DNA of 64,000 nt, taken from Patescibacteria group bacterium (lineage in GTDB: Bacteria > Patescibacteriota > Gracilibacteria > UBA4473). Shown here piece after piece: positions 1 through 58,620 of the stretch; within the stretch, counting starts at the first letter, position 1, and every line of letters begins with the position of its first letter. The stretch lies in assembly GCA_965660445.1 (NCBI GenBank), contig CBFIAK010000002.1, positions 1-64,000 on the forward strand, written 5' to 3'. Under the pieces are notes generated by a model. It saw only the letters and a list, made by a program, of their open reading frames with translations, ran no database searches and was not told where the DNA came from. The position numbers and the translations under genes are program-made.

Positions 1-3000
1 CATGCCATTGCTCGTAAATCCGGTGCTTCTCAAGAAGCAACTCAATGGGTTTTAGATTCTTTTTTAGGAAGTAAGAAAACAAGAAAACTGGACCAGAAAA
101 TGTTTGAGAAAAGTTTAAAAACGCCTGTAGAAAAGAAAGTGTCTGATGTGCCTGTGAGTGCAAAAGAGTCGCCTGTTCGACTCGATAATCTGCTCTCAAA
201 AGCGCCGAGATTGGGAAAAATTCCTGATAATCTAAAAACGGTATTTGGTGTTGTGTCAACAGATAATGAGGCTCAAGTATTCCAAAAAATGAAAAAAGGA
301 TTTGTTTCATTGGGAGTTGTTTTAGAAAAGGCAGATATAAATGAGGTATCAAGAGCGATTGAAACCTTTACTGATATGGTAGATGAGTTTCAGTTTGCTA
401 CGAATCGTATGTCTAAGTTTACAAGATTAGAGGAAGGAAATGCAGTGAAAAGAATTGACGATTTGCATGCACAGGTAGTTTTGTCTCCTGAAATGCAAAA
501 AATGTATGATGAAGGGGTTGGGGTATTGGATGAGTTTTTAGAAGTGTCTCAAGAACTATTAGTATCGGCAAGGAAGCATGGAGATGAAATATCTGTGCAA
601 AAAATAGAGAGTCTTGTTTCTTCGCTTCAACAAGAAAAGAAGCTCTTTCGTGTGGGGTTGGGAAATGTTGATTTAACAGACGATGCAAGAAAAGTTCGTG
701 TTCAAGAAGATGTTCGGGAAATATTTGGAATGGATTTATCGCCAAAACAATTAGATGCTTTTGTGGAAGCGCATAAAATGCCGGGTGAGTTTGGAAACCT
801 TACACAAGCACAAATAAAAATGAGAATTACTCATTTGCACGAAGCAGGGGTGTCAGATGATGTTATTCGATATGCTTTGGATGCAGGGTATTTGGGGTGG
901 GTGCAATCTTTGGGGAATGGTATGAAACGGGTGGGGAAGGGATTATGGAGAAATACACTTGGATTGATTACGAGAGGAAAAAATAAAGCAGTTGGAACGT
1001 TGAAAGAAGGTGCTACTGCTACAAAGACAAAACTTATGGATTGGCGTAAGGAAAAGAATTCAGGAGTTGCTCTCTCTGAGGTGCAAAAACGATCTCAATC
1101 GATTTTAGATAAAAATAGAAAAGCGTATGCTGATTTGCAAGAAACATTGGAGAATCTGCTTACGAGGGGCATGAATTTGCGTTATCGATTTGAGAGAGCT
1201 TCTGGTCAGCATTATGTTTCATCATTTGAAAATTTTGATAAGGTCTTAGATCATGATCCAAAAGGGTTGTTGGCTTCTGCGGATTTATTAATAAAGAGTT
1301 TGAAAAAAACAGTTCAGGGGTCTGTTATTGATTTAAAAGATTCTGGTCGTTTGGTTTCTGGGAAATTTGAGTATGATATGGATTCGGGGAAGTATATTTT
1401 TGATGATGATTTTGTAACAGCTTTTAAAAGACAAGGAGGAACAAAAGAGTCTTTAAATGTTTTAGCTCCTCTGTTGAAGGATATAAATCCTGAAACAGAT
1501 AAAGATTTAGTCGCAGATATTCTAGCATATGTACAATTAAAGTCATCGGCATCGTCAGGTGGGGTGACTAGTAATGCTTTTTCTTATAGAGATATTAATA
1601 CCCAGAGGAAAGCAATTATAAATAAATTAAAGGGAGAACCAGGGGCTATTGATGATATTCGTAAGGATGTGCGTTCTTATTTATCAATGAAACAAACGAA
1701 TCTTACAATAAGTCCAAGTGATATTACAGCAGCAGAGCTTGATTTAAAAGATAAAAAGAATGTTTGGGATTCGTATTTGAAAAGTTGGTTAAATGAGGGT
1801 GATGGAATGAATTTATCTCCAGATGAGTTGGCAAATTCAAGGAAAACATTAGAGCTTTCTAGTGAATATCAAGATTTTGTGAATGCGAATAGCAAACTCT
1901 TATCGCTTAAAAGAGATTATAATCGGATAACGTTTTCTCAAGGAGTGGATGGATTAGATGATCAAACACTTCTAATGCGTTTAACTGAGCGATTAACAAA
2001 AGATTCTGAGGCAGCTGTAGCCGCTGAGACGCGATTTTTGAAGGCATGGGATCGTGTATCAGAAGTTCAAGAAAGGCAAAAGAAAGGAAAGGGGAAACTT
2101 GTGGCAGGGGGTATTGTTTTGACTGCTTTAGTTGGAGGAGGTGTTTATTTTCGTGAAGAATTAGAATCGGCTTTTGGTGTTGGTGTTTCTGTCGCAGAAA
2201 CTACGAAAGAGGCGGCGGAAGCTTTAGCAGAGCGCATTCAGATTGTATGGAATGGGAAGGGGGTTGTCTGGGAAAAAGATCTTAATGGTAATAAGAGGTT
2301 GCTTATTGATCCAAATTTGCAAGAAACTAGATGGGCTGTGTTAGCGGGGGAGATTGCGAGTGGATATACTATTACGTCTATCGATGATCTTATTGAGAAA
2401 AAGGAATTAGGGAAAATGGTTCAGCATACAGTGCAATCACTGACGCCATTGCAATTTGCAAATATGAAGGTACCAGAGTCAGTTTCTTTCCTTGGGAAGG
2501 CGTGGGATAATGCCACAAATGGTATGGATAAAAGTGTTTTTATTCAGGGTCTTAAAGCGGAAAATATACAATATTTTGTAGACAAATTGATTTATAAGAA
2601 GGAGGGAATTAAAAAAGACGGAACTCCGTATACGAGTTTTCAGGATAAACCTGATGCTGGATATGCCGAAGTTTCTGCATTTCAGCCTTGGATGGTTCAG
2701 TATATTCAAAAAGATGTTGTAAATGATATTGCCCAAAAAAATCAGAAACTCTTTTTTCAGCTCTTTGATCTGATTCGATCAGGAGAGCGAAATGTCTCAA
2801 AAGGAGGTATTCAAGTAGAAAATGAAAAGTTCTCGCCAACACAGAATGAGTTCGTATCTCATTTGAATGAAAAATCAATTCAATCATTAATGCAATCAGG
2901 AAATCTTGATAAACTAGAATCGTTTATTGTGTCGATTGATTTATCGGATTTTTCTGTGAATGAACTAAAACATTTATCGCTTAAACAATGGGTTGCTTTA

Positions 3001-4032
3001 AAAGAAGCTTCTCAGCGAAGTTTGGATCCAAAAGCTTTTATGGATACGCTTGAGTATCATTTGTCTTATCCAGGGGATGAGGATCATATGAAGATTGCAA
3101 AGACTTTACTTGCTATTGTATATGGTGATGATGTTGTGAATTCAGGAATCGGGTATACAGATAGGACGGATAAGAGTTTCTTGGAAAACCTATCAAATAA
3201 AGTGTATTCTGCATTTGAAAAGACAAAAGATGGAGTTGTAGATGCGTCGGTTGGTGTGGGTGAGTGGACGGCTGACCAATATAACGCTATTCGGTATTGG
3301 ATAAAAGATAAAGAGGAGATGATAGTTGTAATGGAGGATTTAAATAAAGATTTTAATAAAAAGGAATCGTATGAGGTTCGAGACTTAGAGCGCTATGTTT
3401 TAGCTCTTGATTATTTGGAAAGTAAAGGAGGGACAATCTTTTTGCCTGATAGTTTTGATGTTGTAAAACTAGCGAATGGAGTAAAGATGGGTGATTTGGA
3501 GTCGAAAGATATTTCTTATTTTTATGAAGATAATGGAGTGTTAAAACGAAAACCACTTTCTGAATTAAAAGGTGAGGGTTTTTGGGGTGCTTTAGTGGGG
3601 ATGGATATCAAAGGTTTCTTAGAAAACCAAGAAGGTCTTCTTGAAAAGCTGAAAGGTAAAAATGAAGAATCGAAAGATGAGGAAACCAAAAACTCTGAAA
3701 AAGAAACAACACCGGAGAAAAGAGAACTATCAAAGGAGGAAAAAGAGAAACTTATATCTCAGGCAATTGATGGGATGAATCTTTTGCGTGGTATTGATCC
3801 GCTTTCAAGAAAACATATTGAATCATATCAAAAGCTTTTAGACTCCGTTCGGAAAAATGGTGGGGATATTGCCGATATTCCGTTTCTCATTGGAAAGCGT
3901 GGAGGGCAATATATTATCATTGATAATAATATAAATGATGCCTTGTATCAAGGCTTTCGAAAAGGTGTTTTTAAGGGGAAAGATATTACTTTACCGCTTT
4001 TATATTCTTATGTTTCAAATATTGATGAATAG
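1..4032 (+). CDS. Very large orphan protein (>1340 aa, 5'-truncated by window edge), helical, one central TM segment
   Basis: Frame is open from base 1 (HAIARKSGASQEATQWV...) through the ATG at 100, so the true start lies upstream; hydrophobic LVAGGIVLTALVGGGVYF at ~2098-2151; no recognisable catalytic motif. Confidence 0.8.
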   Translation, partial: HAIARKSGASQEATQWVLDSFLGSKKTRKLDQKMFEKSLKTPVEKKVSDVPVSAKESPVRLDNLLSKAPRLGKIPDNLKTVFGVVSTDNEAQVFQKMKKGFVSLGVVLEKADINEVSRAIETFTDMVDEFQFATNRMSKFTRLEEGNAVKRIDDLHAQVVLSPEMQKMYDEGVGVLDEFLEVSQELLVSARKHGDEISVQKIESLVSSLQQEKKLFRVGLGNVDLTDDARKVRVQEDVREIFGMDLSPKQLDAFVEAHKMPGEFGNLTQAQIKMRITHLHEAGVSDDVIRYALDAGYLGWVQSLGNGMKRVGKGLWRNTLGLITRGKNKAVGTLKEGATATKTKLMDWRKEKNSGVALSEVQKRSQSILDKNRKAYADLQETLENLLTRGMNLRYRFERASGQHYVSSFENFDKVLDHDPKGLLASADLLIKSLKKTVQGSVIDLKDSGRLVSGKFEYDMDSGKYIFDDDFVTAFKRQGGTKESLNVLAPLLKDINPETDKDLVADILAYVQLKSSASSGGVTSNAFSYRDINTQRKAIINKLKGEPGAIDDIRKDVRSYLSMKQTNLTISPSDITAAELDLKDKKNVWDSYLKSWLNEGDGMNLSPDELANSRKTLELSSEYQDFVNANSKLLSLKRDYNRITFSQGVDGLDDQTLLMRLTERLTKDSEAAVAAETRFLKAWDRVSEVQERQKKGKGKLVAGGIVLTALVGGGVYFREELESAFGVGVSVAETTKEAAEALAERIQIVWNGKGVVWEKDLNGNKRLLIDPNLQETRWAVLAGEIASGYTITSIDDLIEKKELGKMVQHTVQSLTPLQFANMKVPESVSFLGKAWDNATNGMDKSVFIQGLKAENIQYFVDKLIYKKEGIKKDGTPYTSFQDKPDAGYAEVSAFQPWMVQYIQKDVVNDIAQKNQKLFFQLFDLIRSGERNVSKGGIQVENEKFSPTQNEFVSHLNEKSIQSLMQSGNLDKLESFIVSIDLSDFSVNELKHLSLKQWVALKEASQRSLDPKAFMDTLEYHLSYPGDEDHMKIAKTLLAIVYGDDVVNSGIGYTDRTDKSFLENLSNKVYSAFEKTKDGVVDASVGVGEWTADQYNAIRYWIKDKEEMIVVMEDLNKDFNKKESYEVRDLERYVLALDYLESKGGTIFLPDSFDVVKLANGVKMGDLESKDISYFYEDNGVLKRKPLSELKGEGFWGALVGMDIKGFLENQEGLLEKLKGKNEESKDEETKNSEKETTPEKRELSKEEKEKLISQAIDGMNLLRGIDPLSRKHIESYQKLLDSVRKNGGDIADIPFLIGKRGGQYIIIDNNINDALYQGFRKGVFKGKDITLPLLYSYVSNIDE

Positions 4033-4058
4033 GTTGAGCTTTGTCTTTTAAAAAAAAC

Positions 4059-4088
4059 TTGCCAACCAAACTTCCTTTTCTCTATACT
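4059..4088 (+). promoter_or_regulatory. sigma70-type promoter of the 4134 gene
   Basis: TTGCCA ... TATACT with ~18 nt spacing, 45 nt upstream of the ATG. Confidence 0.6.
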
Positions 4089-4133
4089 AGGTATGTATTA
4101 CTAATTTTTGATTCTTAAATCATTAAAAAACTC

Positions 4134-6518
4134 ATGAAATTCTTCTCGTCTATCGTTTCCAAATCATCTCCTTCTCGTTTTTTGTATAATGTAGAGCAGT
4201 ATAATGCTGCAAGAGAAGAACTCGGAGATGTTATTGCTTCTATTCGTGAGGAGCTTGAACAAAACAAACTTGAAACTGTCGATGTAAAAGCAGGGTACAC
4301 TCTGTCTGAATCAGTAGCAGCTCTGGCGAATAAATCAGTAGGAGAGGCTTTAAATATGCCTTTGCGATATGAGAGTATTCGAAAAAGTGTGTATGGGCCT
4401 TCTGTGCCTGATCAGGTGCGAGGAGCTGCTTGGATTTATCCAGGACAGGTTGTGAGTATTGAAGACGGAGTTGTTGTTGTGCGGGATAAGAGTGCGAATT
4501 TACAGAAAGTTTCTGCAGAGTTGGCAAGTGTGGAGGATCCTTCAAAGGGATGGGACGAGCCGAAAGATCTTTCGGAAGGATGGGATCTTCCTGAAAATGT
4601 TGATGGGTTTTTAGGATCAGTATGGGATACGGTGGGTAATGGAGAAACGTGGTCAAATTTAGGAGAAGGAACTTTGAATGTATTGAAAAAAATTGGAGGG
4701 GGGCTTGAAGATGTTTTTGATGGAACTGCTTACGAAGGACTTAAAAATCATTTGAATAAAGCAGGAGATTTAACAATGGTTGATATTTTGAAAGGGGTAA
4801 AAGATGGAACTTTGTATGTTGCTAGAAAAGGTGGAGAAGTCGTTATTTGGACAGGGGGAAAAGTTGGTGAAGGGGTGAAGTATGTACTTAGTGGTGATGA
4901 AGCTGAAAAATTTGAACAGAAAAAAGAAGCGGTTGAGAAAGGATTTATTGAAGGTGTTCGAGATGGAACGGTTGATCTTTATGAAAATGGGGAAAAGAAA
5001 GCCGTTGATGTGATGAATTGGTTTTCTGATACGTATGATGAGTATTTGGGTGCAGAATCAAAAGATGTGCGTGCAACACTGAAAGATTATATTGCCGGAA
5101 AAGAAGTGAATCCTGCTGATTTAATGCATAAAATTACAAATGTAAAAACACTCGATGAAAACTTGATGCAGGCACTGCAAGTTGAGAAGGTTCGTCAATT
5201 TTTTACAGGAAAAGATATTGTATTTGCTCATCTTGAGTCGGTTGATGCAGGGGCGTACCGATTGATGGAAAACTGGAACGCGAAAAGTTTAACGTTTGAA
5301 AAGTTGGAGGATTTGAATCTTCCGAAAAACGGGAAAGGTGAAATTGATGTTGATATTGAAGACTGGTCGTTTGGAAATTTGAGTTTTAAAAAAGTAAAAA
5401 GTCTGAATGAAACTGAAGCTCGGTGGTTGTCTCGTTTTGATGGTGTTGTGTACTTACCTTCATTAAATGAAGATACAAATAAGAATATCATTGATGCTCT
5501 TGACGGAGGGAAAGCAACGATAAGATTTAATGATTCAATTAACGGAAAACGGCTGGATTGGAACGCCGAGTCAATTATTGATAATACGACACGATATTAT
5601 GCAGAAAAAGATATTTTGGATTCTGGTGATTGGGGGAAAATGTCTGCTTTGGAATCACTTTCTACTGCGAAATATGGAGGTATGCCCGAAGGGTATTCTG
5701 AAACAGGGTTTGTAAATGCGTTGTGGGGAGAAGTGAGTCGTGCTGATGGGGCATTGGATGCCATTGATCTTTCTGGTTTGAAAGAAGGTGGTGTTTCGGC
5801 AGAACAAATGAGTATTCTTTCGCGTATTCCAGTTGATGTGAAGCTGAGTGGAGGACTTAAAAAACAATTAAATGATGCTCGTAATAATATTTTAATTCAA
5901 GGATTTGAAAGTGGGAATATGGAAATGAGAGGAATCGCTCTTGCTTTGGCTCCTTTGAAATCTATTAAATTTTCACCTGAGGCAAAAGATGCCATTCGAA
6001 ATTATGTATTTATGTGTTGTATGGAAACTCGACTCGATTGGGAAGACCAAACAGCTGCTTTGGTTGAGTCTTATAAAGAAGTATTTGGAAACGAAGGTGA
6101 TGCGATACGAGAGAGAGTGAGTGGGCGAGTGGAAAATGTTGAGTTTTTATCAATTTCTTTAGATCGAAGTCTTTTGGAATCATATATAGAGCAATTGAAA
6201 AATAGTGATTCTCTTGATGATGCTCAAAAACAAGTTTTAATCAACTATTTCGAAGAAACGATGAATCTGCCAGATGTTGTAAATGGTATTGATCCGAATG
6301 CTTGGAAAGGGGTGTTGTATCATATGTATGTTTCAAAAGATGTTTCGGCAGCTATTCCAGATTCTCAAGAATTGATTCAAGAATTCTTGGCTGGGCATGG
6401 TTCGGAGATAACTCCTGAGCAAGTATCATACTTACAATCGTTTGTTGGGGAAAATGCAGATGATATGATGACATTTGATCCAACAGTATGGCTTGTGATT
6501 TTCGATAAGATGTATTAA
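4134..6518 (+). CDS. Orphan protein with N-terminal RFLY motif, LysM-like segment and degenerate LRR-like repeats
   Basis: 794 aa; TVDVKAGYTLSE...WIYPGQVVSI resembles LysM ends; LSFKKVKSLNETEARWLSRFDGVVYLPSL and IDLSGLK resemble LRR-type repeats; no hydrophobic signal peptide. Confidence 0.7.
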   Translation: MKFFSSIVSKSSPSRFLYNVEQYNAAREELGDVIASIREELEQNKLETVDVKAGYTLSESVAALANKSVGEALNMPLRYESIRKSVYGPSVPDQVRGAAWIYPGQVVSIEDGVVVVRDKSANLQKVSAELASVEDPSKGWDEPKDLSEGWDLPENVDGFLGSVWDTVGNGETWSNLGEGTLNVLKKIGGGLEDVFDGTAYEGLKNHLNKAGDLTMVDILKGVKDGTLYVARKGGEVVIWTGGKVGEGVKYVLSGDEAEKFEQKKEAVEKGFIEGVRDGTVDLYENGEKKAVDVMNWFSDTYDEYLGAESKDVRATLKDYIAGKEVNPADLMHKITNVKTLDENLMQALQVEKVRQFFTGKDIVFAHLESVDAGAYRLMENWNAKSLTFEKLEDLNLPKNGKGEIDVDIEDWSFGNLSFKKVKSLNETEARWLSRFDGVVYLPSLNEDTNKNIIDALDGGKATIRFNDSINGKRLDWNAESIIDNTTRYYAEKDILDSGDWGKMSALESLSTAKYGGMPEGYSETGFVNALWGEVSRADGALDAIDLSGLKEGGVSAEQMSILSRIPVDVKLSGGLKKQLNDARNNILIQGFESGNMEMRGIALALAPLKSIKFSPEAKDAIRNYVFMCCMETRLDWEDQTAALVESYKEVFGNEGDAIRERVSGRVENVEFLSISLDRSLLESYIEQLKNSDSLDDAQKQVLINYFEETMNLPDVVNGIDPNAWKGVLYHMYVSKDVSAAIPDSQELIQEFLAGHGSEITPEQVSYLQSFVGENADDMMTFDPTVWLVIFDKMY

Positions 6519-6540
6519 TTTGTTTATTTAAGAAAAAGGA

Positions 6541-6577
6541 AAAAAGCACTTTCTTGAAGGAGAAAGTGCTTTTTTTT
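6541..6577 (+). terminator. Rho-independent terminator
   Basis: AAAAAGCACTTTCT-TGAAGG-AGAAAGTGCTTTTTTTTT. Confidence 0.85.
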
Positions 6578-6702
6578 ATTGTTTTGTAATATTTTTGTAA
6601 TTATTTCAAGCGCAATTGTGTTATTTGTTTTGAAAATACTTGCCAATATCTAGTGATGTACGTTACAATTTTATTGATACAATTTTTTATTCTTTCGATA
6701 TT

Positions 6703-8085
6703 ATGAAAACACTGCAAAATTCGGTTCTTAATTGGTCTTCTTCTGAAGTTGGAGCTCGGTTTGTTTTTCAACAATCAAGACCTTCTGCTACTCCAGGAGG
6801 GACTGCTGAAAAGGCAACGCTTGGTGATGCATGGGGAATGAATTATGAAATGATTTCTCGAGATTTTAAAAAAATGGGAGTAGAGGCTGAATCTATGTGG
6901 GATGAAGGGTATGATAAAGTAACGAATAGTCTTTCTGATTTTTGGGATTCGGCTGTTGAGGCGGGTGTTGAGTTCTCGAATAGTGAGTTAGAACAGAATA
7001 ATATTCGAGCGGCTATTCTTTTGGGTGATTATTCTCGTGTTTCGGAACTGAAAACATTGGGTGGTGAATATGCGAAATATTTTGATATTTCTATTGATAA
7101 AAATGAGTACCATTCAAAAGTCGGTGATGATATTCGAGCAAAAGCACCATTTTTGAATTCGAAATATGATCAGATTATTATGGAAACTTTGGTGAATAAT
7201 GCGGGGATAGAAAAAGATGGTTGGCGTACGCAGATGACAAAGATGCCTCTCAATAAAATTCAAACAATGTCTATAGATGCCGCTCGTTCTCTTTTGAATT
7301 TCAATGGGAGTGTTGTGGAATTGCAGTCTTTGGATCAAAATATTGTTGATCCAGCGGTGATTGATGTGTTTGCACGATGTGAGCAAAAAGGAATTACTAT
7401 TGTGTTGGGAGCGGATCAAGCATTACTTCGAAAGTTAATTGATAATCAAAAACAAGCTTTAGCAAATACGGTTTCAAGTGTGCCACAGCATACTATTATT
7501 GAACAAATTAGCAATGGGTATCTTGGAAATGTTCATCAACTTGACTCAGCTTCTTTGACGTATGAAGTCGCTAAGAATATTGAAAAATATGAAGATCGAT
7601 TGAAAGGAAAATTAGATCTTTCAGGTGTTGAATCTATTTCGGATCCGCGGGTAGCTGCAGAGTTGGCAGATGTTGATGTTAAAATTATGTTATTAGGTGT
7701 TCGTGATTTTCAGAGCCCAGAAATTGCTAGAGAGTTGGGTGATGCGAGTGCTGATCGAATTAATATGCCGAATTTAAAAGCAAAAGGTACAAATCCAGAA
7801 GCGATGCGAGCATTGCTTGAATATGAAGGAACTTTAATTCTTCCAAAGATGTCACGATCTGATGTGTGGGCAGATGGAACGAAGTTTGTTTCATTGATGC
7901 AAAACGCAGAATCGTTTGTAGAGGATAAAGATTTTTTCCAAACAAATCTTGGTGATCCAAATGCAATAGTGCCGAAAACGACAAATTCTTCAAATACTAA
8001 TACTCAAGGTTCAGGAAAAAAATCGTCTCCATTCGGAGGGGGTGGGAATAATAATTCTTCAGGAAAAAAGAAGAGCCCATTCTAA
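6703..8085 (+). CDS. Orphan protein with N-terminal RFVF motif and LRR-like repeats
   Basis: ATG at 6703 follows promoter TTGCCA(6640)-N18-TACAAT(6664); repeats such as LDLSGVESISDPRVAAELADVDV / IMLLGVRDFQSPEIARELGD / INMPNLKAKGTNPEAMRALLEYEG; low-complexity tail with SGKK(S/K)SPF twice. Confidence 0.7.
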   Translation: MKTLQNSVLNWSSSEVGARFVFQQSRPSATPGGTAEKATLGDAWGMNYEMISRDFKKMGVEAESMWDEGYDKVTNSLSDFWDSAVEAGVEFSNSELEQNNIRAAILLGDYSRVSELKTLGGEYAKYFDISIDKNEYHSKVGDDIRAKAPFLNSKYDQIIMETLVNNAGIEKDGWRTQMTKMPLNKIQTMSIDAARSLLNFNGSVVELQSLDQNIVDPAVIDVFARCEQKGITIVLGADQALLRKLIDNQKQALANTVSSVPQHTIIEQISNGYLGNVHQLDSASLTYEVAKNIEKYEDRLKGKLDLSGVESISDPRVAAELADVDVKIMLLGVRDFQSPEIARELGDASADRINMPNLKAKGTNPEAMRALLEYEGTLILPKMSRSDVWADGTKFVSLMQNAESFVEDKDFFQTNLGDPNAIVPKTTNSSNTNTQGSGKKSSPFGGGGNNNSSGKKKSPF

Positions 8086-8109
8086 ACGAGAAGAAATTAT
8101 AAAAATTAT

Positions 8110-8140
8110 GAAAAAACTAGTACTTGTACTGGTTTTTTTT
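8110..8140 (+). terminator. Rho-independent terminator
   Basis: AAAAAACTAGTAC-TT-GTACTGGTTTTTTTT. Confidence 0.65.
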
Positions 8141-8179
8141 GTTTTTTTGTGGTATAATGGAAAGATTTTATTTCTCTAA

Positions 8180-10153
8180 ATGATTTTATTCTCATTCTCG
8201 GTTTCGGAAAATATGCGGTTTTTGTATCAAAATAGCCCAAAGAATGCCCCTAATGCGGTGAGTACTTATCCTGTTATTATTGCACAAACAAAAGAAGATC
8301 TTCTACAACTCGATAAAAGAGTTGCTTTGTATCCTCAATCAGAAGAAGAAAAAGACATAGTATCAAAACCTTCTTCATTAATTTCTCAAAAATCGTCACC
8401 GAGTATAACACAAAAACCAAATTCAACTGTTGTTCTTGCACAACAAAATACAGAATTACTCGATACACTCTATAGTGATGAAAGAGTTGCATTATTTCCT
8501 TTGCAGTCTCCGTCCCCTTGGGATTATTTTCTAAAATCTGGAGTGAATTTAGAAACGAATCGGTTAAATTTTTCAGATGTCAATGTATTGAACCATAACC
8601 GGCTTCCTATTGATGCTTTTGGTGGTGGGCGGAATGAAACAGCACAGTTTTTTCAAATGTTGGCTGATTATGGAGATATGCATGATAAAGCGTTTATTCA
8701 AAACAATTCAAAACAATTAACCTATTATGCCGATCAAATAGATATGACCAGAACATTGCACCAAATGCTCAATCCTGAGTATACAGAAAAATGGGCTTCG
8801 CAATGGAGTGAATATAAAGATTTTATTGCGTTTGCTCAAAACACACTTTTGCCAAAACTTCAGTCGTTTAACCCAGAAACACAAACATTTAAAGAATTCT
8901 TAGATGATGCGGTGTCTGATTTTTCTTCACTTGAAGCGTTTCAAGATGCACCAGATTCTTTGAAAAGTACGCTTGAAAATGGACTGAAATCAGCTTTACT
9001 GAACCAACTTTGGTATGTTAACGATCGGTTTCAGGAAAATTCAACAGCAAAACAAGATCTTCAGTTTCAGTCGCAATTGTATGGGTTTTCATTAATTCAG
9101 TCTCAGTTTCTTCAAAGACCAGCGCAACGATCAGCAATCAATGTGTTTGCACAAAAAACAATGGAAAGTTGGTTGAATTCTGAAAATTCTCTTGTGCATG
9201 TCGAAGGAACCGCCCAATATGATATAGGGAAAAAAGGAAAACTCTCTTTTTCTGGAGCATTAGGGTTAAACCCTTCTGGAAAACTTGGAGGAGACGAAGG
9301 AAACTTTGATCTCTATACAAGAAATGCTCTTTTAGCAACGACCAAGCTTGCCTACACACAACCAATTTTCGAAAAATCCGGTATTGATGCTGATATTAAT
9401 GCAGAACTGAAGTTTGGGGTAATTACTCCATTAGGGGATGCAATGTCTCGCCATACGGGAAATTTTCAATTAGCAGGAAATATTGTGGGGGTGGATAGTG
9501 GAATGTTGACTTTTGGAAACCTTGCCGATACGGAAATGATGGGATACGGGAAAATTGATGCCGTTTTTCGAACGGAAAATAAATCACAAACACTCTTGAT
9601 TGATTGGAACCCTCAAATGTACGTGTTACCATACCAAGTCATTGATACATTCCAAGGGGAGGCTTGGCAACAAGCCAAAGAAATATCAGGTATTCAGTCT
9701 TCTGGAGCCGACCTTGTTCCAGAAATGCTTTTTGGAATAAATCTTCAGTATTCACCAGATTCTATACGAAGAAATAATAAAAATGAACCACAACGAATTG
9801 ATAAAGCTCCGGATTTACTCTTTAAAGGAGGCCTTCTCTTGAATGTAAAACGACCATTCTTAGAGGCTTTATCTGAAAACGATAACGTTGAAATACTTCG
9901 TTCTATTCAAGCGTTAAACCTTGAAGTCGATAAAAAAGTAGCTGATGATGTTCAATTATATCTCAAAACTCAATTCTCTGGAGGTATTGGAGGTGGAGCA
10001 AACGTATTTTTGAATAATTTTAATACTGCGTTTGGAACCAGATGGCAAATGGATAGCAAAGGAAAACTTCTGTTTGATGCCAATGTTGGGCTTACTCAAT
10101 TTGGAGGTCATAAAAACTACAACGCTCAAGTAGGAGTAAAATGGAACTTATAG
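8180..10153 (+). CDS. Orphan protein with N-terminal RFLY motif and C-terminal beta-barrel-like region
   Basis: 657 aa; extended -10 TGTGGTATAAT upstream; C-terminal half has alternating amphipathic strands and ends ...LLFDANVGLTQFGGHKNYNAQVGVKWNL. Confidence 0.7.
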   Translation: MILFSFSVSENMRFLYQNSPKNAPNAVSTYPVIIAQTKEDLLQLDKRVALYPQSEEEKDIVSKPSSLISQKSSPSITQKPNSTVVLAQQNTELLDTLYSDERVALFPLQSPSPWDYFLKSGVNLETNRLNFSDVNVLNHNRLPIDAFGGGRNETAQFFQMLADYGDMHDKAFIQNNSKQLTYYADQIDMTRTLHQMLNPEYTEKWASQWSEYKDFIAFAQNTLLPKLQSFNPETQTFKEFLDDAVSDFSSLEAFQDAPDSLKSTLENGLKSALLNQLWYVNDRFQENSTAKQDLQFQSQLYGFSLIQSQFLQRPAQRSAINVFAQKTMESWLNSENSLVHVEGTAQYDIGKKGKLSFSGALGLNPSGKLGGDEGNFDLYTRNALLATTKLAYTQPIFEKSGIDADINAELKFGVITPLGDAMSRHTGNFQLAGNIVGVDSGMLTFGNLADTEMMGYGKIDAVFRTENKSQTLLIDWNPQMYVLPYQVIDTFQGEAWQQAKEISGIQSSGADLVPEMLFGINLQYSPDSIRRNNKNEPQRIDKAPDLLFKGGLLLNVKRPFLEALSENDNVEILRSIQALNLEVDKKVADDVQLYLKTQFSGGIGGGANVFLNNFNTAFGTRWQMDSKGKLLFDANVGLTQFGGHKNYNAQVGVKWNL

Positions 10154-10164
10154 ACGTTTCGCTT

Positions 10165-10454
10165 TAGAGGAGACAACTTAGAAACCGCCATTCTGCGGTT
10201 TTTTGTTTTCTCCTCTATACGAAAAAGTGCTTACTTTTTCGATACCTCTTTCCAATAAAGAGTTTGAGTGCTTCGAGCCCCACAAGACCCAAAGCGTACT
10301 CACACATATTTTATTTTTGAAATATATTCATTTCAAAATCAAAATCAGTTAAAAATTTGAGTTGGCTCCCTTGGGTGGTGCTGACTCAAATTTTTTCTTC
10401 TTAAAGGGAAAAGATAGGTATTGGAAAGAAAAACCGAATGGTTTGTCTTTCCAA
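10165..10454. other. Intergenic string of stem-loops (candidate structured ncRNA plus terminators)
   Basis: Seven consecutive inverted repeats at 10165-10217, 10220-10241, 10246-10262, 10265-10302, 10315-10338, 10351-10395, 10421-10454. Confidence 0.45.
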
Positions 10455-10464
10455 AAAAGAAGCG

Positions 10465-11688
10465 CTATAGCCCTTCTTGAATTCTCAATAACTGGTTGTA
10501 TTTACACACTCGTTCAGACCGAGAAAGAGACCCTGTTTTGATTTGTCCGGCGTTTGTTCCCACTGCTAAATCAGCAATAAATGAGTCTTCGGTTTCTCCT
10601 GATCGGTGAGAAATAACGGTACCAAACCCGTGTTTTTTCGCTAAGTGCATGGTCTGAAATGTTTCGGTTAAGCTTCCGATTTGGTTTACTTTAATCAAAA
10701 TAGCGTTGCATAAATGTGTATCAATAGCCACTTGTAACCGTTTTGGGTTCGTGACGAGTAAATCGTCACCAACTAACTGCAACTTACTTCCAAACCGTTC
10801 TTGCATTTTTCCAAACCCAATAAAATCGTCTTCATGATGTGAGTCTTCTAGCGACTCAATAGGATATTTTTTCATCAGATCAGCATAGACATCAATAAGT
10901 TCAGCAGACGATACCACTCGGTTATCAATGTGGTACTGTCCGTTTTCATAAAACTCATTGGCTGCTGCATCCATAGCGAGGCGGACTTTTCCGTCGTACC
11001 CCGTTACATGAATTGCTTCCAAAATAACATCACACGCTTCATGAGAATGAGCTATATGAGGAGCAAAACCACCTTCATCACCCACTCCAACAGCGTGTCC
11101 TTTTGATTTAAGTATCTTTTTTAACGTATGAAAAATTTCAGCACCTGCTTGTAAGTTTTGTCGAAAATCTTCGAAATGAGGAAATACCATGAATTCTTGA
11201 ATGGCAAGTCCCGAATCAGCATGAGCGCCTCCATTTAAAATATTCATCATCGGTCGAGGTATGCTCATACGCCCTCCAAATAAATGATTGATATGTCGGT
11301 ATAGCGGGATGTTTTTTTGTACGCTTGCGAGTCGACACACGGCAAGCGATACCCCTAAAATAGCGTTGGCTCCTAATTGTGATTTATTCGGAGTTCCGTC
11401 TAAATGAATCATTTTTTGATCAATGGCTTCTTGGTTTTGAGGATCAAGCCCCAAAACAGACGGCCCAATAATCGTATTCACGTTTCGAATAGCTTGTAAT
11501 ACTCCTTTTCCGTTATATCTATCGAGGTCTTTGTCTCTGAGTTCTAATGCTTCGTGAGCGCCTGTTGATGCCCCTGAGGGGACGCATGCACGTGCGACAT
11601 GTTGTCCATCAGAAACTTCTACTTCAATGGTTGGGTTTCCTCGTGAATCAAGAATTTCTCGTGCGAAAACAGATTTAAGTGGCTTCAT
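10465..11688 (-). CDS. eno: Enolase (phosphopyruvate hydratase)
   Basis: AREILDSRGNPTIEV, VPSGASTG, GDEGGFAP, ILIKVNQIGSLTET, SHRSGETED, QIKTGSLSRSER. Confidence 0.99.
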   Translation of the reverse strand: MKPLKSVFAREILDSRGNPTIEVEVSDGQHVARACVPSGASTGAHEALELRDKDLDRYNGKGVLQAIRNVNTIIGPSVLGLDPQNQEAIDQKMIHLDGTPNKSQLGANAILGVSLAVCRLASVQKNIPLYRHINHLFGGRMSIPRPMMNILNGGAHADSGLAIQEFMVFPHFEDFRQNLQAGAEIFHTLKKILKSKGHAVGVGDEGGFAPHIAHSHEACDVILEAIHVTGYDGKVRLAMDAAANEFYENGQYHIDNRVVSSAELIDVYADLMKKYPIESLEDSHHEDDFIGFGKMQERFGSKLQLVGDDLLVTNPKRLQVAIDTHLCNAILIKVNQIGSLTETFQTMHLAKKHGFGTVISHRSGETEDSFIADLAVGTNAGQIKTGSLSRSERVCKYNQLLRIQEGL

Positions 11689-18132: not shown

Positions 18133-18912
18133 TTATCCAAAGAAACCAAGCAGTTGTATATACCAATTCCATAACCATGTATCGGTATAGAGGAAAACCA
18201 GCAGTGCCGGCATAAGGAATGCGCCCATGGGTAATGGAGTTTCTCCATTTGCTTTTTTAAAAATGAGTAATGGTAGGGCAATAAAACTTCCCAATATGTA
18301 AGACAAAAATAATGCCCCAAGTGTCAGCTTCCATCCCAACACAAGACCTATAAAAAGAGCTAATTGTTGGTCTCCGTCGCCTACCCATTTTCCTTTTGAA
18401 ATCCAGTATTGCAACGCGTAAAAGGAAAACCCAATGGCTCCACCAATAAGAAAAGTCTGAACACCTTCTTCTCGAAAAAATGCCCAAAGTAGAACACCAG
18501 CTATCGCAGGAATCGTGAGTCTCTGGTCCACTTCAAAGTACCAAAGATCGTAATAGAAAAAAACCAATGCGAAAAAAACCACCCATAACACAGGAATAAG
18601 CTCTACGCTTGGATACATTTTTTGTGCAAACAAAAAAAACAAAAGCCCAAAACTTATTTCCAATAGTGGGTATATGGCTGATATTTTTGTTTTACAAAAA
18701 CTACATTTTCCTTTTTGTATTACCCATGAGAGCACAGGAATAAGATTGAGAACGCCAAGGCGGTGTTTGCATTTTGTGCATTTCGATCGTCCATTGATAA
18801 TACCTATTTCATCGTTATGGAGTCTGTGAATAAGCAGTGATGAAAAACTTCCAAGTACGAGTCCGAGACAAGTAATGAAAAAGAGGGGAAATGCTGATAA
18901 AGTGTGAAGCAT
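18133..18912 (-). CDS. pilD: Type IV prepilin peptidase (A24)
   Basis: GLVLGSF, RSKCTKCKHRL, IPVLSWVIQKGKCSFCKTKISAIYPLLE, WVGDGD, PMGAFL. Confidence 0.95.
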   Translation of the reverse strand: MLHTLSAFPLFFITCLGLVLGSFSSLLIHRLHNDEIGIINGRSKCTKCKHRLGVLNLIPVLSWVIQKGKCSFCKTKISAIYPLLEISFGLLFFLFAQKMYPSVELIPVLWVVFFALVFFYYDLWYFEVDQRLTIPAIAGVLLWAFFREEGVQTFLIGGAIGFSFYALQYWISKGKWVGDGDQQLALFIGLVLGWKLTLGALFLSYILGSFIALPLLIFKKANGETPLPMGAFLMPALLVFLYTDTWLWNWYIQLLGFFG

Positions 18913-53758: not shown

Positions 53759-54598
53759 TTAGATTTCATTATCAATAGTGTTTTCTATTTGTTCTCCAAT
53801 TAAAATGAGTCTATTCTTGTTTGTTCCAATAGGCGTACAGGTCATGAGTGTGATGATTTTTACATCATCAGGTTGTTTGAGAACTTGTGTTGCAGTAGGG
53901 GGAACAACTTTCTTTGCTTTAATGAGATAGGTGTATTTTTTTCCGTTCCAATAAACTTCAACAATTTCGTTCGTATTCATTTCATGAAGCAGTGCAAAAA
54001 CATCTTTGAATCTTCCATTATCCCATGTGTAGTAAGATGAATGACCTGTGATAAATAAATTACCTTCTTTCTCAGGAGGCCGAGAGACTGGATGAACGAC
54101 TACCCCATCTTGAAGTCCTTTTTGAATATTTGTTTCCAGTTGATTCCAGTTTTTGTGATGTGGGACGGTAATGAGTGGAACATTTTTATCTAAACTCGGA
54201 ATATAAAGTCGGTTATCTGATGGATAAATATCCATGTCACGAAAAACTCTTTTCGCTTCGTTTTTTGGTTTGAGTGCCGTACTTGCAAATAAAGGTTTCC
54301 GAGTGTTTTGCTGTACAAGGGTTACTTCTTTGAGTTTTTCTACTTGTGGAGTAAATGAATTTTCTGCTTTTACTTCGGCAATTCCTTTATTTTGAATTGC
54401 ATCAATTTTAAATTCTGCAATTTGTGAATACGCACTATAGTTTAAAGCAATATGACTTCCACCCCAAAAACACAAAACCGATAAAACAAATAAAGACATC
54501 TCTTTCCACATTGGTTTTCGTTTTTGAAGTTGAAACCGAAACTGATTTCCAGAATTGTTATCTGTAGGAGATGTGTGCTTTATTTTTTTGTGATTCAT
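53759..54598 (-). CDS. Sortase
   Basis: N-terminal TM; LYIPSL, ITGHSS, FALLH, catalytic TLMTCTPIGTNKNRL. Confidence 0.92.
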   Translation of the reverse strand: MNHKKIKHTSPTDNNSGNQFRFQLQKRKPMWKEMSLFVLSVLCFWGGSHIALNYSAYSQIAEFKIDAIQNKGIAEVKAENSFTPQVEKLKEVTLVQQNTRKPLFASTALKPKNEAKRVFRDMDIYPSDNRLYIPSLDKNVPLITVPHHKNWNQLETNIQKGLQDGVVVHPVSRPPEKEGNLFITGHSSYYTWDNGRFKDVFALLHEMNTNEIVEVYWNGKKYTYLIKAKKVVPPTATQVLKQPDDVKIITLMTCTPIGTNKNRLILIGEQIENTIDNEI

Positions 54599-54692
54599 AT
54601 ATCTGTTAAAAAGAAATCAGGATATTATACCTGATTTTCTTATTTTTTTCAATGAAGATATATTGATTTATTGTTTTGATTGTAGTGAATTA

Positions 54693-56777
54693 CTACTCTT
54701 GTGATTCGGCTCGTCGGCGAAGTATTTCTTCTGGGTTACTGGTAATGATTCGGTCTTCTCCAAAACTTGCAATAATTTCAATAGCAACGTGTTGATTTCC
54801 AGCAAAGAAAAGCCCTTGTCCGACGGTTGAGTTTAAGAGGAGATATTTCTCTCCATCAGTGAGATTAAATACTTTTTTAAGTCTCTCAATAGCAACAGGG
54901 GCTTGCCTGAGAAGGAGTTGCATTGAAGAGTTTGTAATGATTGGTTTCCCCCATTTACTGTCTAAGAAATCTTCTACGTCTTGCGTGATAGTTGTAATTC
55001 CTAAGTAGTATTTCCGTGCTCGTTTAGTCAGATTATGTAAAAATCGTCCAGAGTCTTCATATTGCACCATGTGCCATGCCTCATCAATAGCGAGTATCCG
55101 TTTTCGTAAATCAGATCGTACGCGGTTCCAAATAAAATTCAGAAGCATGTACATCGCAATCGGACGAAGTTGCTCTTCTAAATCACGAATACAAAAGACA
55201 ATGAGTCCAGAATTTAAATCAACATTTGTTACATCAGAAAAAAGTCCTGAAAATGTTCCTTTGGTGTATTTTTCCAGTCTTATGGCAAGATTTTTTGAAC
55301 CATCAAGGGAATGGAGAACGTCTTCAAGATCAACCATGGTCGGCATTTCGTATTCCCATGGGTTTTCAGTTTGAAGTGTGATTCCTTTGAGTTCATAGGT
55401 TTGTAAAATGGCTTTATCCATTAAGGCTTCTTCTTCAGGGGTGAGTTTTCCAAGCATGATATTAAGAAGCCCTAAAAGATTGATAGTGTTTTCTTTGATG
55501 AGTTCTCCTGGACGAATATCGTCTTTATCAATAGGAAGGGGAAGATCAAACGGATTGATTCGGTGATTTGATGTGAGCGAAATATGAACATAACTTCCAC
55601 CAACTGTTTTTGCGAGTTCTTCGTATTCGTTTTCTGGATCAAGAACAATAACATCGGTTCCCATCATGAGAGACCGAAGAATTTCGAGTTTTACGGCATA
55701 TGATTTACCAGCCCCAGATTTCGCAAATACAACTGCATTTGCATTTTCTAAATCAAATCGGTCAAAGATAATAAGAGAATTGTTATGTCGATTAATACCA
55801 TACAAAATTCCACTATCAGTTGTAAGATCGTTTGATACAAAAGGAAATGTTGTTGAAAGAGGAGAAGTGTTCATGTTGCGTGTTACCTCTAGCAGATCAA
55901 CGCCTTGTGGAGTTGTTGATGTAAATCCTCGTTCCGTTCGAAAATCACTACTTCGAGTCATAACCAACTGTCCTCCAAGTATGGTTTCGATTTGTTTACT
56001 GGTTTCTTTTAGTTTTTCGTCTGATTCAGCATAAACGGTTAAATACATTCCCACATGAAAAAATTTTTCCATACCACGTTGTAAATCGATTCGTAACTGT
56101 TGTGCATCTTCAAGTGCCGTATCTAAGGATGTACTGTTTATTTTTCCTTGTTTTTCGTTTATGTGTTTTGTTGAAATCATTTCTACCACTTTTCGTCGCA
56201 GAACTTTCATAATTTTCGCGGAATCACGAGGATACACAAAAAGCGATAAATCAAATGTTGCATCAAAGTTTATAATCGGATTAAGCCAGTTTGCTTCTAG
56301 ATATCGTGGGTAGTTGTATACATAATATGTTCGTGCGTGAGCACTATTTATTTGAATACTATTCGTAGAAATCTCCATAGAAGATGGAGCGATAAGGTCT
56401 TTGACGGATATAATCCCTTCTCTATATTTTTTTTCTGATTCAATGATGCGTTTTCGCATTTCATTGGTCAGTTTTTTCTTGTCTCGTTTTGGATCAAAAT
56501 TTTCAAAAAAGGCATCTAAGTCACCCATTTCTTTTTCTTTTTTTTCGTTTTCAGCTTTTTCGTTCTCAGCCTCTTCTTCTTTATCGGTTCCCCATTTTTT
56601 TCTTATTTTCTCAGCAATACCATACCCAAAAGTTCCTTTTTTCTCTTTACTGGCTATGACAATATCTTTTGTTTCTTTTTCTTCAGTTCCGTTATTCGGT
56701 TTGGTATTGTCTGTATCCACTTGAGGGGGGAGTGGTTGGTTGCTCTGAGATGTTGTTGTTTTTTGTTCTTCACTCAT
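54693..56777 (-). CDS. virB4: VirB4-like (TraC/ConE, DUF87) secretion ATPase
   Basis: LSTTFPF, GILYGIN, IIFDRF, NANAVVFAKSGAGKSY, DPENEY, INPFD, IDEAW, RARKY, ITQDVEDF. Confidence 0.88.
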   Translation of the reverse strand: MSEEQKTTTSQSNQPLPPQVDTDNTKPNNGTEEKETKDIVIASKEKKGTFGYGIAEKIRKKWGTDKEEEAENEKAENEKKEKEMGDLDAFFENFDPKRDKKKLTNEMRKRIIESEKKYREGIISVKDLIAPSSMEISTNSIQINSAHARTYYVYNYPRYLEANWLNPIINFDATFDLSLFVYPRDSAKIMKVLRRKVVEMISTKHINEKQGKINSTSLDTALEDAQQLRIDLQRGMEKFFHVGMYLTVYAESDEKLKETSKQIETILGGQLVMTRSSDFRTERGFTSTTPQGVDLLEVTRNMNTSPLSTTFPFVSNDLTTDSGILYGINRHNNSLIIFDRFDLENANAVVFAKSGAGKSYAVKLEILRSLMMGTDVIVLDPENEYEELAKTVGGSYVHISLTSNHRINPFDLPLPIDKDDIRPGELIKENTINLLGLLNIMLGKLTPEEEALMDKAILQTYELKGITLQTENPWEYEMPTMVDLEDVLHSLDGSKNLAIRLEKYTKGTFSGLFSDVTNVDLNSGLIVFCIRDLEEQLRPIAMYMLLNFIWNRVRSDLRKRILAIDEAWHMVQYEDSGRFLHNLTKRARKYYLGITTITQDVEDFLDSKWGKPIITNSSMQLLLRQAPVAIERLKKVFNLTDGEKYLLLNSTVGQGLFFAGNQHVAIEIIASFGEDRIITSNPEEILRRRAESQE

Positions 56778-56833
56778 GAGATATATATCATTTTATTATA
56801 GCACAGAGAGCCAGAAAATACAAACATTTTCCC

Positions 56834-58012: not shown

Positions 58013-58140
58013 AACACTTTTGATATAAAATAAAAATGATTGAGTTGTATAAAAAAAATATACTATTTTTTACAAAATAGTAATTTTTCTGTATTGATTT
58101 TCTGTTGTTTTTTATGGTTTTATAACCTTTCAAGGCGGAG

Positions 58141-58569: not shown

Positions 58570-58620
58570 GAGAAAATAAGAAGTGTTTGTTTTTATATAT
58601 GTGTTTGAAAAATGAATGCC

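Follow-up and report, generated by a model that had tools for sequence, protein, structure and literature searches.

Unrelated proteins of one bacterial family share a short N-terminal tag, which is selected at the protein level, is restricted to that family and carries no hydrophobic core; export is a plausible role for it. In all, 53 carriers were found, from 21 genomes and 13 genera of a family of Peregrinibacteria, with one to at least eight verified carriers per genome. Three of them are encoded in the window, the whole 64,000-nucleotide stretch of DNA that was analysed, and the 0.99 Mb genome to which it belongs encodes five further tagged proteins.

Within the window, the three carrier genes follow one another on the forward strand, and each encodes an orphan protein. 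Gene A (4134-6518) encodes a protein of 794 aa with a pI of 4.6, and its tag (4134-4190) reads MKFFSSIVSKSSPS-RFLYN, with the core RFLYN at 4176-4190. Gene B (6703-8085, 460 aa) has its tag at 6703-6771, MKTLQNSVLNWSSSEVGA-RFVFQ, with the core RFVFQ at 6757-6771, and gene C (8180-10153, 657 aa) has its tag at 8180-8230, MILFSFSVSENM-RFLYQ, with the core RFLYQ at 8216-8230. The first-pass annotation had described these three R-F-(L/V)-(Y/F)-(N/Q) N-termini with exact coordinates and sequences, and the motif turned out to be far more widespread. A search of 5.8 billion proteins returned only gene A itself for gene A and no homologue for gene C, which also has none in 40 relatives. The start of gene B is the ATG at 6703, and the TTG further upstream, at 6640, forms the -35 hexamer in a promoter-like site; the public gene call for gene C begins at M12, immediately ahead of the R.

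Each gene had been assigned its own promoter. Scanning gave a promoter-like site upstream of gene A (4059-4088, + strand, TTGCCA-18-TATACT, a consensus match only) and of gene B (6640-6669, + strand, TTGCCA-18-TACAAT), while for gene C an extended -10 box (TGgTATAAT, 8150-8158, + strand), 22 nt 5' of the ATG, was recognised by eye only; the scan total did not exceed that of shuffles (20 vs 18.9). Terminators had likewise been placed between the genes, and this was borne out in part: a strong intrinsic-terminator-like hairpin follows gene A (6538-6577, + strand) and a terminator-like hairpin follows gene C (10180-10203, + strand), but the terminator scan gave none between genes B and C. Upstream lies the 3' part of a giant gene (1-4032, + strand, 1343 codons), which is truncated by the contig start and is possibly a fourth carrier. 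A candidate for its N-terminus, which carries a degenerate form of the tag (MKFLSHFSDTEMK-LWLYANATP), extends past the 3' limit of contig C3, and we infer that C3 joins contig C2, which would link the two parts.

The tag comprises about 20 residues, M-K-N-L-F-x-S, a short loop and then [RK]-F-[LIV]-[YFW]-Q-[EN]-x-P-P. Of the 53 carriers, 41 have R and 8 have K at core position 0; 12-16 residues stand ahead of it in 46, and position -1 is T, S or A; two carriers begin directly with M-RF. The tag region is predicted to be disordered (pLDDT 30-37), and what generally follows it is a polar, acidic, Pro-rich spacer instead of the amphipathic helix proposed from the first genes.

A profile (A1) was built solely from genomes G000 and G013 and then run on 41 other family genomes, and all 44 of its matches with E≤1 in open frames of at least 159 aa were inspected. 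N-terminal tags, 1-24 residues behind the first ATG, accounted for 38 of the 44 (binomial P(X≥38 | 44, 0.15) = 1.3e-25), which agrees with the N-terminal position originally observed; of the remaining six matches, five are internal and one, in a coupling-protein homologue, comes after the membrane helix. The statistics within single genomes are more modest. The pattern [RK]F[LVIM][YFW][NQ] occurs 10 times in a crude set of 870 ORFs of the window's own genome, and six occurrences, the three founding cases included, fall within the first 60 residues, which make up 17% of all residues (P=0.003). In the complete genome G013, 6 of 11 occurrences are N-terminal (P=0.006), and in the complete genome G015 it is 1 of 6, which is not significant. 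By N-terminal count, the true motif order ranked second of 120 permutations, and the reduced-alphabet 5-mer kflfq ranked only 185th of 1108 by N-terminal enrichment.

Several carriers have no other start codon within 70 codons, so their true starts do not lie downstream of the tag, and in one inspected set of 15 N-terminal hits an in-frame stop precedes every match by 11-32 codons. Among carriers, none of the residues R, F, [LIV], [YF] and Q is tied to one codon, and therefore selection on the tag acts at the protein level. The tag is retained between paralogues that are only 27% identical, and among the homologues P0008, P0009 and P0013 it is kept in the first two and degenerate in the third.

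At E≤0.02, the profile matched 10 of 22 family genomes vs 6 of 178 others. Four of the six out-of-family hits were inspected, each of them either internal or located after a membrane helix, and the other two lie in short frames; the juxtamembrane hits occur in coupling-protein-like proteins. Across the genomes compared, the tag is confined to one family of uncultured, ultra-small bacteria among the Peregrinibacteria (CPR), in line with the lineage specificity first suspected. No Pfam or NCBIfam model matched the N-terminal 35 residues of any carrier, and we found no published description of the tag in the literature.

Behind the tag, the carriers have little in common. BLAST of 39 carriers with the first 35 residues removed gave 29 unrelated clusters, and the carriers are genus-specific. 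They are acidic and hydrophilic, their ORFs range from 133 to 1935 aa, and a TM-like segment (KD19 above 1.6) is lacking in 34 of 39. LysM, VWA and PG-binding modules usually act outside the cell, and VWA domains are known inside cells as well. A Pfam scan of 35 carriers gave domains in only two, LysM and VWA, and no housekeeping domain. The LysM domain of one carrier is bona fide (27.7 bits), and VWA_2 passes Pfam in one carrier family, a fold assignment that AF2 and Foldseek bore out. That family also has a weak PG_binding_1-like region (2 of 12 homologues, best E=0.0033), and a weak LysM-like stretch (E=0.0045) is present in carrier C1 565811. The cargo therefore looks like envelope or host-interaction proteins rather than housekeeping proteins, as far as domain matches indicate. 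For genes A, B and C themselves, the LysM-like, LRR-like and beta-barrel-like domains named in the first-pass annotation found no match above threshold in Pfam and NCBIfam.

We compared the carriers with known export routes. None of the 53 has a Sec (SPI/SPII) signal peptide, that is, none reaches KD10≥2.0 vs 39% of G000 ORFs, and the maximum Kyte-Doolittle 10-residue mean within the first 45 aa has a median of 0.49 and a highest value of 1.89, so the lack of a Sec-type core noted in the three genes extends to the whole set. A Tat signal was rejected, given the single R/K with T/S/A at position -1, no twin arginine and no h-region, and a type IV prepilin leader was rejected for the lack of a hydrophobic segment; an A24 peptidase is encoded, but the carriers do not show the features of its substrates. 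Against a double-glycine leader, PF03412 is absent from a 100%-complete genome and no conserved GG follows the tag. Type VII secretion would call for a multi-FtsK ATPase, and the one FtsK_SpoIIIE match above cut-off is a single FtsK of 788 aa; for accessory Sec (SecA2), there is only a single SecA_DEAD match and no second SecA. A leader-peptide attenuator does not fit either, as the ORFs that continue in frame from the tag are 133-1935 aa long and the codons of the tag are not conserved. In the VWA carrier family, none of 12 homologues replaces the tag by a Sec signal peptide, and there is thus no evidence of signal swapping.

Type IV secretion (T4SS) offers weak leads, and the tie between the tag and the VirB4 or pilus machinery is circumstantial. 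The window encodes a VirB4-like type IV secretion ATPase (54693-56777, - strand, PF19044) as candidate machinery, whose own N-terminus is without the motif. Its neighbours are a sortase (53759-54598) on one side and, on the other, a PG_binding_1 protein (56834-58012) and then a pair of secreted TPR proteins (58141-59289). The pilus machinery includes a prepilin peptidase (A24, 18133-18912, - strand), for which no connection with the tag was found. Besides the VirB4-like PF19044 protein, the genome encodes three TraG-D_C / T4SS-DNA_transf coupling-protein paralogues, and coupling proteins are present in all 43 family genomes, with 2-5 in most and one in two incomplete assemblies. In G013 the gene order is giant carrier, Sec-signal giant, T4CP_c; in G019 the start of a giant carrier and a T4CP paralogue on the same strand are about 220 nt apart; and in G020 a T4CP_c match ends about 3.3 kb upstream of a giant carrier. 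This adjacency is no more than suggestive: it concerns 3 giant carriers of 53, two of them homologous, and was noticed post hoc. The 10 kb on either side of VirB4 show no enrichment of carriers, with only 1 candidate in 55 loci (936 kb in total).

In sister lineages, eight VirB4 orthologues have a disordered N-terminal extension in which a motif resembling the tag core occurs, 10-16 residues from Met1, and other VirB4 lineages have different conserved N-terminal short motifs at the corresponding place. Since no other clear carriers were found in the five genomes with a motif-bearing VirB4, the link between the VirB4 motif and the tag may be coincidental. The substrate signals known for T4SS lie at the C-terminus and depend on charge; in the last 45 residues of 39 carriers, neither a charged or domain-type translocation signal nor any common feature was present.

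Most likely, the tag marks orphan proteins for a non-standard export or docking route. The specific reading that it is a shared recognition mark for a common partner in non-Sec routing, with T4SS as the most likely reader, we hold at about even chances. The tag would then be recognised at the protein level by one common partner and would label a set of fast-evolving proteins, soluble, acidic and for the most part orphans, which it would route out of the cytoplasm or to a cell-envelope machine, bypassing the Sec signal-peptide pathway. We infer an export or sorting signal read by the T4SS, most likely via one of the three conserved coupling proteins.

The tag might instead be a cytoplasmic docking motif that tethers the carriers, and VirB4 in the sister lineages, to one common platform in the cytoplasm or on the inner face, be it a chaperone, coupling protein or membrane scaffold, with the carrier itself untranslocated. 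The VirB4 ATPase is cytoplasmic, and the similar motif on its eight orthologues, at an equal distance from Met1 and in a disordered extension, argues for docking over translocation, as do the other N-terminal motifs of other VirB4 lineages and the predicted disorder of the tag region; yet LysM and probably PG-binding-like modules make little sense on intracellular proteins, the orphan, hypervariable cargo is typical of surface or effector proteins, and in AF2 modelling the VirB4 motif stayed undocked from the body of VirB4, so that we consider this reading rather unlikely. A protease could also read the tag as a propeptide or degron, and the proteins would then stay inactive, or be turned over rapidly, until a signal arrived, for example contact with a host; the reader would be a family-specific processing peptidase or a Clp/Lon/FtsH adaptor. 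A unit of fixed length at the extreme N-terminus, ending in an invariant-like Q ahead of the spacer and partly dispensable in the two M-RF carriers, would suit this proposal, but no candidate peptidase was identified, the genome has no C39 peptidase, and a degron leaves the bias to orphan proteins with envelope-type modules unexplained; we think it improbable.

Colicins carry N-terminal boxes in disordered translocation domains, and on this model the tag, unread by the producer itself, would bind a conserved host protein after the carriers had been released by another route. The tag is short and N-terminal, lies in a disordered region and heads diverse cargo, which would suit the model, and CPR are expected to live as epibionts, but the related motif on cytoplasmic VirB4 does not fit, no release route was identified and the idea is purely analogical, which makes it slightly more improbable still. 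A translation-level element, in which the conserved codons act through the nascent chain as a regulatory or arrest peptide or through the mRNA as an aid to initiation without Shine-Dalgarno sites, seems very unlikely. It would draw on the fact that the genome does not use Shine-Dalgarno sites (9% of starts vs 15% background) and on 5' UTRs that are very short or absent, given -10 boxes 6-22 nt from the ATGs; against it, synonymous codons vary freely while the residues are kept, the tag is in frame with a long ORF with neither stop nor terminator behind it, and R, Q and P are conserved besides the aromatics. Chance, AT-rich codon bias or hidden paralogy within one gene family could appeal to the modest within-genome statistics and to the rank of kflfq, but we regard it as already refuted by the N-terminal placement of 38 of 44 independent hits (P about 1e-25), the 29 unrelated clusters, the tight spacing and the permutation rank.

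Export signalling through the tag would have partial parallels elsewhere. MIX is an N-terminal marker motif of type VI secretion (T6SS) effectors, and we know of no T6SS in CPR. MIX, prePAAR and WHIX resemble the tag as short N-terminal elements on unrelated, fast-evolving, non-Sec proteins that define a repertoire predictable from sequence, but they are domains of tens to hundreds of residues with partners often encoded nearby, whereas the tag is about 20 residues long, keeps a fixed spacing from Met1 and differs in motif, lineage and machine, with export putative (for prePAAR and WHIX, PMC7773334 and PMC12135965). Like Sec, Tat and YSIRK signals, the tag is N-terminal, has basic and then hydrophobic or aromatic residues and heads diverse cargo; unlike the consensus of Sec, Tat (twin-arginine) and YSIRK-type signal peptides, it has no h-region (0 of 53), a single R/K and a polar, acidic spacer. 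RxLR of oomycetes and PEXEL of Plasmodium are host-targeting motifs of eukaryotic pathogens, short and N-terminal on a large, hypervariable effector repertoire of a parasite, and the tag core happens to match the pattern R-x-L-x-Q; those motifs come after a Sec signal peptide and function within the secretory pathway of eukaryotes, so the likeness is best taken as analogy only, with no evolutionary or mechanistic relation.

The carriers share with T4SS substrates a conserved T4SS with three coupling proteins and, for some, adjoining coupling-protein genes, whereas the tag, with its putative recognition, is a defined N-terminal sequence unlike the canonical signals; an N-terminal translocation signal for type IV secretion is described for Legionella (PMC10100965). 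Passages of PMC11665869 and PMC12102498 state that the role of the T4SS in Patescibacteria is unknown, possibly effector delivery. Tentatively, the tag may be the first substrate-recognition signal of a Patescibacteria T4SS, or belong to a wholly undescribed export route. If so, a defined N-terminal peptide would be read by a dedicated coupling-protein paralogue, the VirB4 motif of the sister lineages would mark the docking site of an ancestor, later recruited as the signal, and the one to eight or more tagged orphans verified per genome would form an arsenal of effectors and adhesins that these epibionts direct at their hosts.

Within the window, the N-terminal sequences of three consecutive genes were identical to those reported in the first-pass annotation, coordinates included: gene A (4134–6518, 794 aa) carries the core RFLYN at 4176–4190, gene B (6703–8085, 460 aa) carries RFVFQ at 6757–6771, and gene C (8180–10153, 657 aa) carries RFLYQ at 8216–8230. 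The window covers the first 64 kb of contig C2 of the source genome (G000), which comprises 991,330 bases in 5 contigs with 36.7% G+C, an estimated completeness of 100% and dense open frames under translation table 11. When the products of genes A, B and C and of the truncated giant gene at 1–4032 were scanned, no Pfam or NCBIfam family was found in any of the four. The proteins encoded by genes A and C matched only themselves among 5.8 billion proteins; for the gene C protein, no homologue was found across 40 related genomes, and a search of the ESM Atlas returned unnamed clusters (best score 0.89) and nothing usable. The GC skew is 0.33 in window positions 1–8000, which hold the giant gene and genes A and B, versus 0.03–0.17 in the rest of the window. 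The end of gene B (7990–8085) encodes a repeated GKK-x-SPF motif.

The search was extended to the whole of G000 with a crude non-overlapping set of 870 ORFs (301,887 residues). The pattern RF[LVIM][YFW][NQ] occurs nine times in this set, six of them inside the first 45 residues. Further carriers of the strict pattern lie on contig C1 at 291595 (minus strand), 565811 (plus) and 788701 (plus), and looser variants occupy the same position in the products of C1 450851 (plus; RFLYR) and C2 128156 (minus; RFLFH). The proteins of C1 788701 and C2 128156 are paralogues with 27% identity over 371 residues, in an alignment that begins at the motif, while BLASTP showed the remaining pairs of G000 carriers to be mutually unrelated. 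Codons differ among the carriers at each motif position (CGT, CGA, CGG, CGC or AAA at the first; TTT or TTC at the second; six codons at the aliphatic position; TAT, TAC, TTT, TTC or TGG at the aromatic position; CAA, CAG or AAT at the last), which indicates conservation of the peptide rather than of DNA or RNA. Within the core of gene A, TGTATAAT resembles an internal promoter; a DNA-level reading of it was dropped because of these codon differences. A second paralogous family, with the N-terminus MF(I/L)P(I/V/F)D(I/T/L)D, was seen at C1 790482–792092, at C4 1046–2641 and 3990–5516, and at the 5′ end of C4, and one of its members lies directly 3′ of the VWA carrier C1 788701.

To describe the shared element, hereafter the tag, 53 carriers from 21 genomes were tabulated, representing 13 of the 25 genera of the taxonomic family by genus labels. 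The tag spans about 20 residues and reads M-K-N-L-F-x-S followed by [RK]-F-[LIV]-[YFW]-Q-[EN]-x-P-P. Position 2 is K in 45/53, position 3 is N in 20/49 (counting carriers in which nine or more residues precede the [RK]), and position 4 is L, F, I or M in 49/53. The residue before the core is T, S or A in 34/53, and the core itself opens with R (41/53) or K (8/53), followed by F in all 53, as imposed by the search pattern. Position +2 is L (20), V (17) or I (16), position +3 is Y (22), F (21) or W (10), position +4 is Q in 44/53, position +5 is E (23), N (15) or Q (6), and a Pro lies within positions +6 to +9 in 32/53. The number of residues ahead of the [RK] is 12–16 in 46 of the 53 carriers; two begin immediately with M-RF, one in genome G011 and the other gene C by its public gene call, which starts at M12, immediately before the R. 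Behind the core there is a polar, acidic and often Pro-rich spacer. The amphipathic helix that had been proposed to follow the motif proved to be no general feature of these 53 carriers.

The starts of the carriers were then considered in view of translation initiation. The Shine-Dalgarno sequence is unused in G000, with an SD-like word before 9% of starts versus 15% of random positions. In the carriers, for instance in the window at 4100–4134 and 8150–8180, a −10-like TATAAT box lies 6–22 nt before the ATG, which places the first ATG at or near the 5′ end of the mRNA. The same spacing was seen in many G000 genes and implies leaderless transcripts or very short 5′ untranslated regions. C1 291595 has a single start codon within its first 70 codons, and the only alternative start in gene A is a TTG within the motif; true starts downstream of the motif, which would have undone the earlier proposal, are thus not what these genes show.

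The position of the tag was assessed with a profile (A1; 14 sequences, 20 columns) built from G000 and G013 only, the latter a genome of another genus of the family, whose entire contig encodes seven carriers, one of them 1935 aa long. The profile was searched against all 43 family genomes, and in the 41 remaining genomes every match at E ≤ 1 in an open frame of at least 159 aa was inspected (n = 44); matches in short frames were regarded as noise and left uncounted. The results showed that 38/44 matches are N-terminal, with 1–24 (mostly 12–16) residues from Met1 to the [RK] (P = 1.3e-25 under a generous null of 0.15), while one lies right behind the membrane helix of a coupling-protein homologue and five are internal. 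For 15 N-terminal matches of one inspected batch, an in-frame stop lies 11–32 codons upstream of the match. Counts by regular expression gave a weaker effect, with N-terminal fractions of 6/10 in G000 (P = 0.003), 6/11 in G013 (P = 0.006) and 1/6 in G015 (not significant), and when the five residue classes were permuted, their actual order ranked second of 120 by N-terminal count. The motif is therefore commoner at N-termini than internally, as the first-pass annotation had required. A sequence R-(F/Y)-x-Y-(Q/R) often stands directly behind the N-terminal membrane helix of proteins like T4CP_c, one of three coupling-protein paralogues of G000 (C1 825181–828030; also at loci L245, L101 and L103), and it accounts for the profile's only near-N-terminal false positives.

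Beyond the family, a second profile (A2; 28 sequences) was searched in a class-level sample of 201 genomes. At E ≤ 0.02 it matched 10/22 family genomes versus 6/178 others. Four of these six were inspected, and their matches are internal or come after a membrane helix in proteins resembling coupling proteins; frames of only 36 and 63 aa hold the remaining two. In its present form the tag was thus found only within the family among the genomes searched. G015, a member of the family, was dropped as a tag-negative genome for phylogenetic profiling, since two weak carriers are present in it.

The proteins behind the tag are highly diverse. After removal of the first 35 residues, the 39 carriers with enough sequence fell into 29 BLAST clusters (E < 1e-4). 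They are 133–1935 aa long with a GRAVY of −0.2 to −1.2, and 34/39 have a pI below 6.5; likewise 34/39 lack any 19-residue window above a Kyte-Doolittle mean of 1.6, and one internal hydrophobic segment is present in each of five large carriers. A Sec-type hydrophobic core occurs in the first 45 residues of 0/53 carriers versus 39% of G000 ORFs, which bears out the lack of such a core noticed earlier. Only two of 35 scanned carriers have a Pfam family above threshold, namely VWA_2 in C2 128156 and LysM in a 1144-aa carrier of genome G043; C1 565811 has a weak LysM-like NCBIfam match (E = 0.0045). No shared C-terminal sorting signal was found in the carriers.

Among 1.84 billion representatives, 12 members of the VWA carrier family were identified. 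The tag is kept in the homologues P0008 and P0009 and degenerate in P0013, and more distant members retain an aromatic residue at the tag position, followed by L and Q/N. No Sec signal was found among the 12 homologues, which thus give no evidence of signal swapping. Two members show a weak PG_binding_1 match (best E = 0.0033), and a profile search of the PDB gave weak VWA matches only. In an AF2 model (mean pLDDT 68.6), the tag is disordered (pLDDT 30–37), the middle is confidently helical and a VWA fold is present. The distant homologues P0011 and P0014 end in CPKF, which resembles the motif at the end of gene B.

Upstream of gene A, window positions 1–4032 hold the 3′ part of a giant gene truncated by the contig start. 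The first 41 residues of its product are 71% identical to residues 160–195 of the product of the first gene on C1 (41–1885), which indicates a repeat at the assembly break. This suggests that the giant proteins are paralogues that share a module and differ in their tails. On C3, an ORF with a degenerate tag at its start (10168–10681) continues past the 3′ end of the contig, and it may represent the N-terminus that the giant gene lacks.

Next, the secretion machinery of G000 was surveyed. The genome encodes one SecA, one FtsK, four PilB/PilT-type ATPases and a prepilin peptidase, while an EssC-like ATPase and a C39 peptidase are absent. The one VirB4-like ATPase of the genome is encoded in the window, in an operon-like row on the minus strand (53759–59289) with a pair of secreted TPR proteins, of which one is a lipoprotein, a protein that has a signal peptide and two PG_binding_1 repeats, and a sortase, and its relatives come from MAGs of Candidatus Peregrinibacteria, Peribacteria or Gracilibacteria. 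Carriers are not enriched near VirB4, where only one candidate was found across 55 loci (936 kb in total). Three VirD4/TraG-like coupling proteins are encoded on C1 (182100–184673, 249329–251839 and 825181–828030, the last being T4CP_c), all kept in G013 and G015 (64–73% identity). Coupling-protein matches number two to five in most of the 43 family genomes, and two incomplete assemblies have one. T4CP_c adjoins giant genes, and the other two paralogues are located close to ribosomal-protein operons. In G013 the order is a carrier (510380–516286), a 2260-aa Sec-signal protein and T4CP_c; in G019 a coupling-protein match ends at 64690 and, on the same strand, a carrier starts at 64467; and in G020 a carrier of 1395 aa lies about 3.3 kb downstream of the end of a T4CP_c match. 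This proximity concerns three giant carriers, two of them homologous, and was noticed post hoc. For G000, T4CP_c and the carrier island fall on separate contigs, the former at the end of C1 and the latter at the start of C2.

A related motif was found 10–16 residues from Met1, in a disordered extension, in eight VirB4 orthologues of other Peregrinibacteria (for example E-RFVYQN, KP-FIYQN and K-RLVFQN). It is absent from the VirB4 encoded in the window and from the closest relatives of that protein, and no further convincing carriers were found in five genomes with a motif-bearing VirB4. In an AF2 model of one such VirB4 (locus L130, 37-row alignment), residues 1–57 have a pLDDT of 32–40, and docking of the motif was not seen. 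The disordered VirB4 extension (loci L120–L165) bears conserved short motifs that differ by CPR lineage, namely PSWLKKAQE-, PPGIPE(S/H)LK-, PF(F/L)KKP- and the FIYQN type.

Taken together, the tag is a protein-level, family-restricted and strictly N-terminal element of fixed geometry, borne by many unrelated, Sec-less orphan proteins, and we infer that one single partner reads it. Envelope sorting or export is the function we favour, at about an even chance, because LysM, VWA and PG-binding-like modules occur among the carriers, which are hypervariable and include no housekeeping protein. If the carriers are exported, the T4SS would be the most likely route, and we assign it roughly half of the weight given to export as a whole. 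A purely cytoplasmic docking motif is rather unlikely. It is improbable that the tag is a propeptide or a degron, and a host-directed box is a decidedly doubtful reading. A translational element is very improbable given the codon variation, and chance, set against the positional bias, is scarcely credible.

Neither Pfam nor NCBIfam has a model for the tag, and no description of the motif was found in the full-text literature, supplements being outside the scope of that search. In passages of two papers (PMC11665869, PMC12102498), the T4SS of CPR/Patescibacteria is described as near-universal and essential, and no T4SS substrate or signal in Patescibacteria is named; for Saccharibacteria, what the T4SS does is there called completely unknown (PMC11665869). 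The tag is alike in kind to N-terminal effector markers and export signals, and its sequence, lineage and probable machinery are new.

Little is known of how CPR/Patescibacteria epibionts affect their hosts, and it is in this setting that the tag is relevant. Even as a docking motif or degron, it marks out a co-regulated set of dark-matter proteins. It would also offer a concrete, testable example of a new targeting signal for a monoderm-type envelope and would serve as a peptide bait for the machinery that reads it. By picking out a hypervariable, Sec-independent repertoire, the tag would help to predict candidate effectors and adhesins in uncultured Peregrinibacteria.
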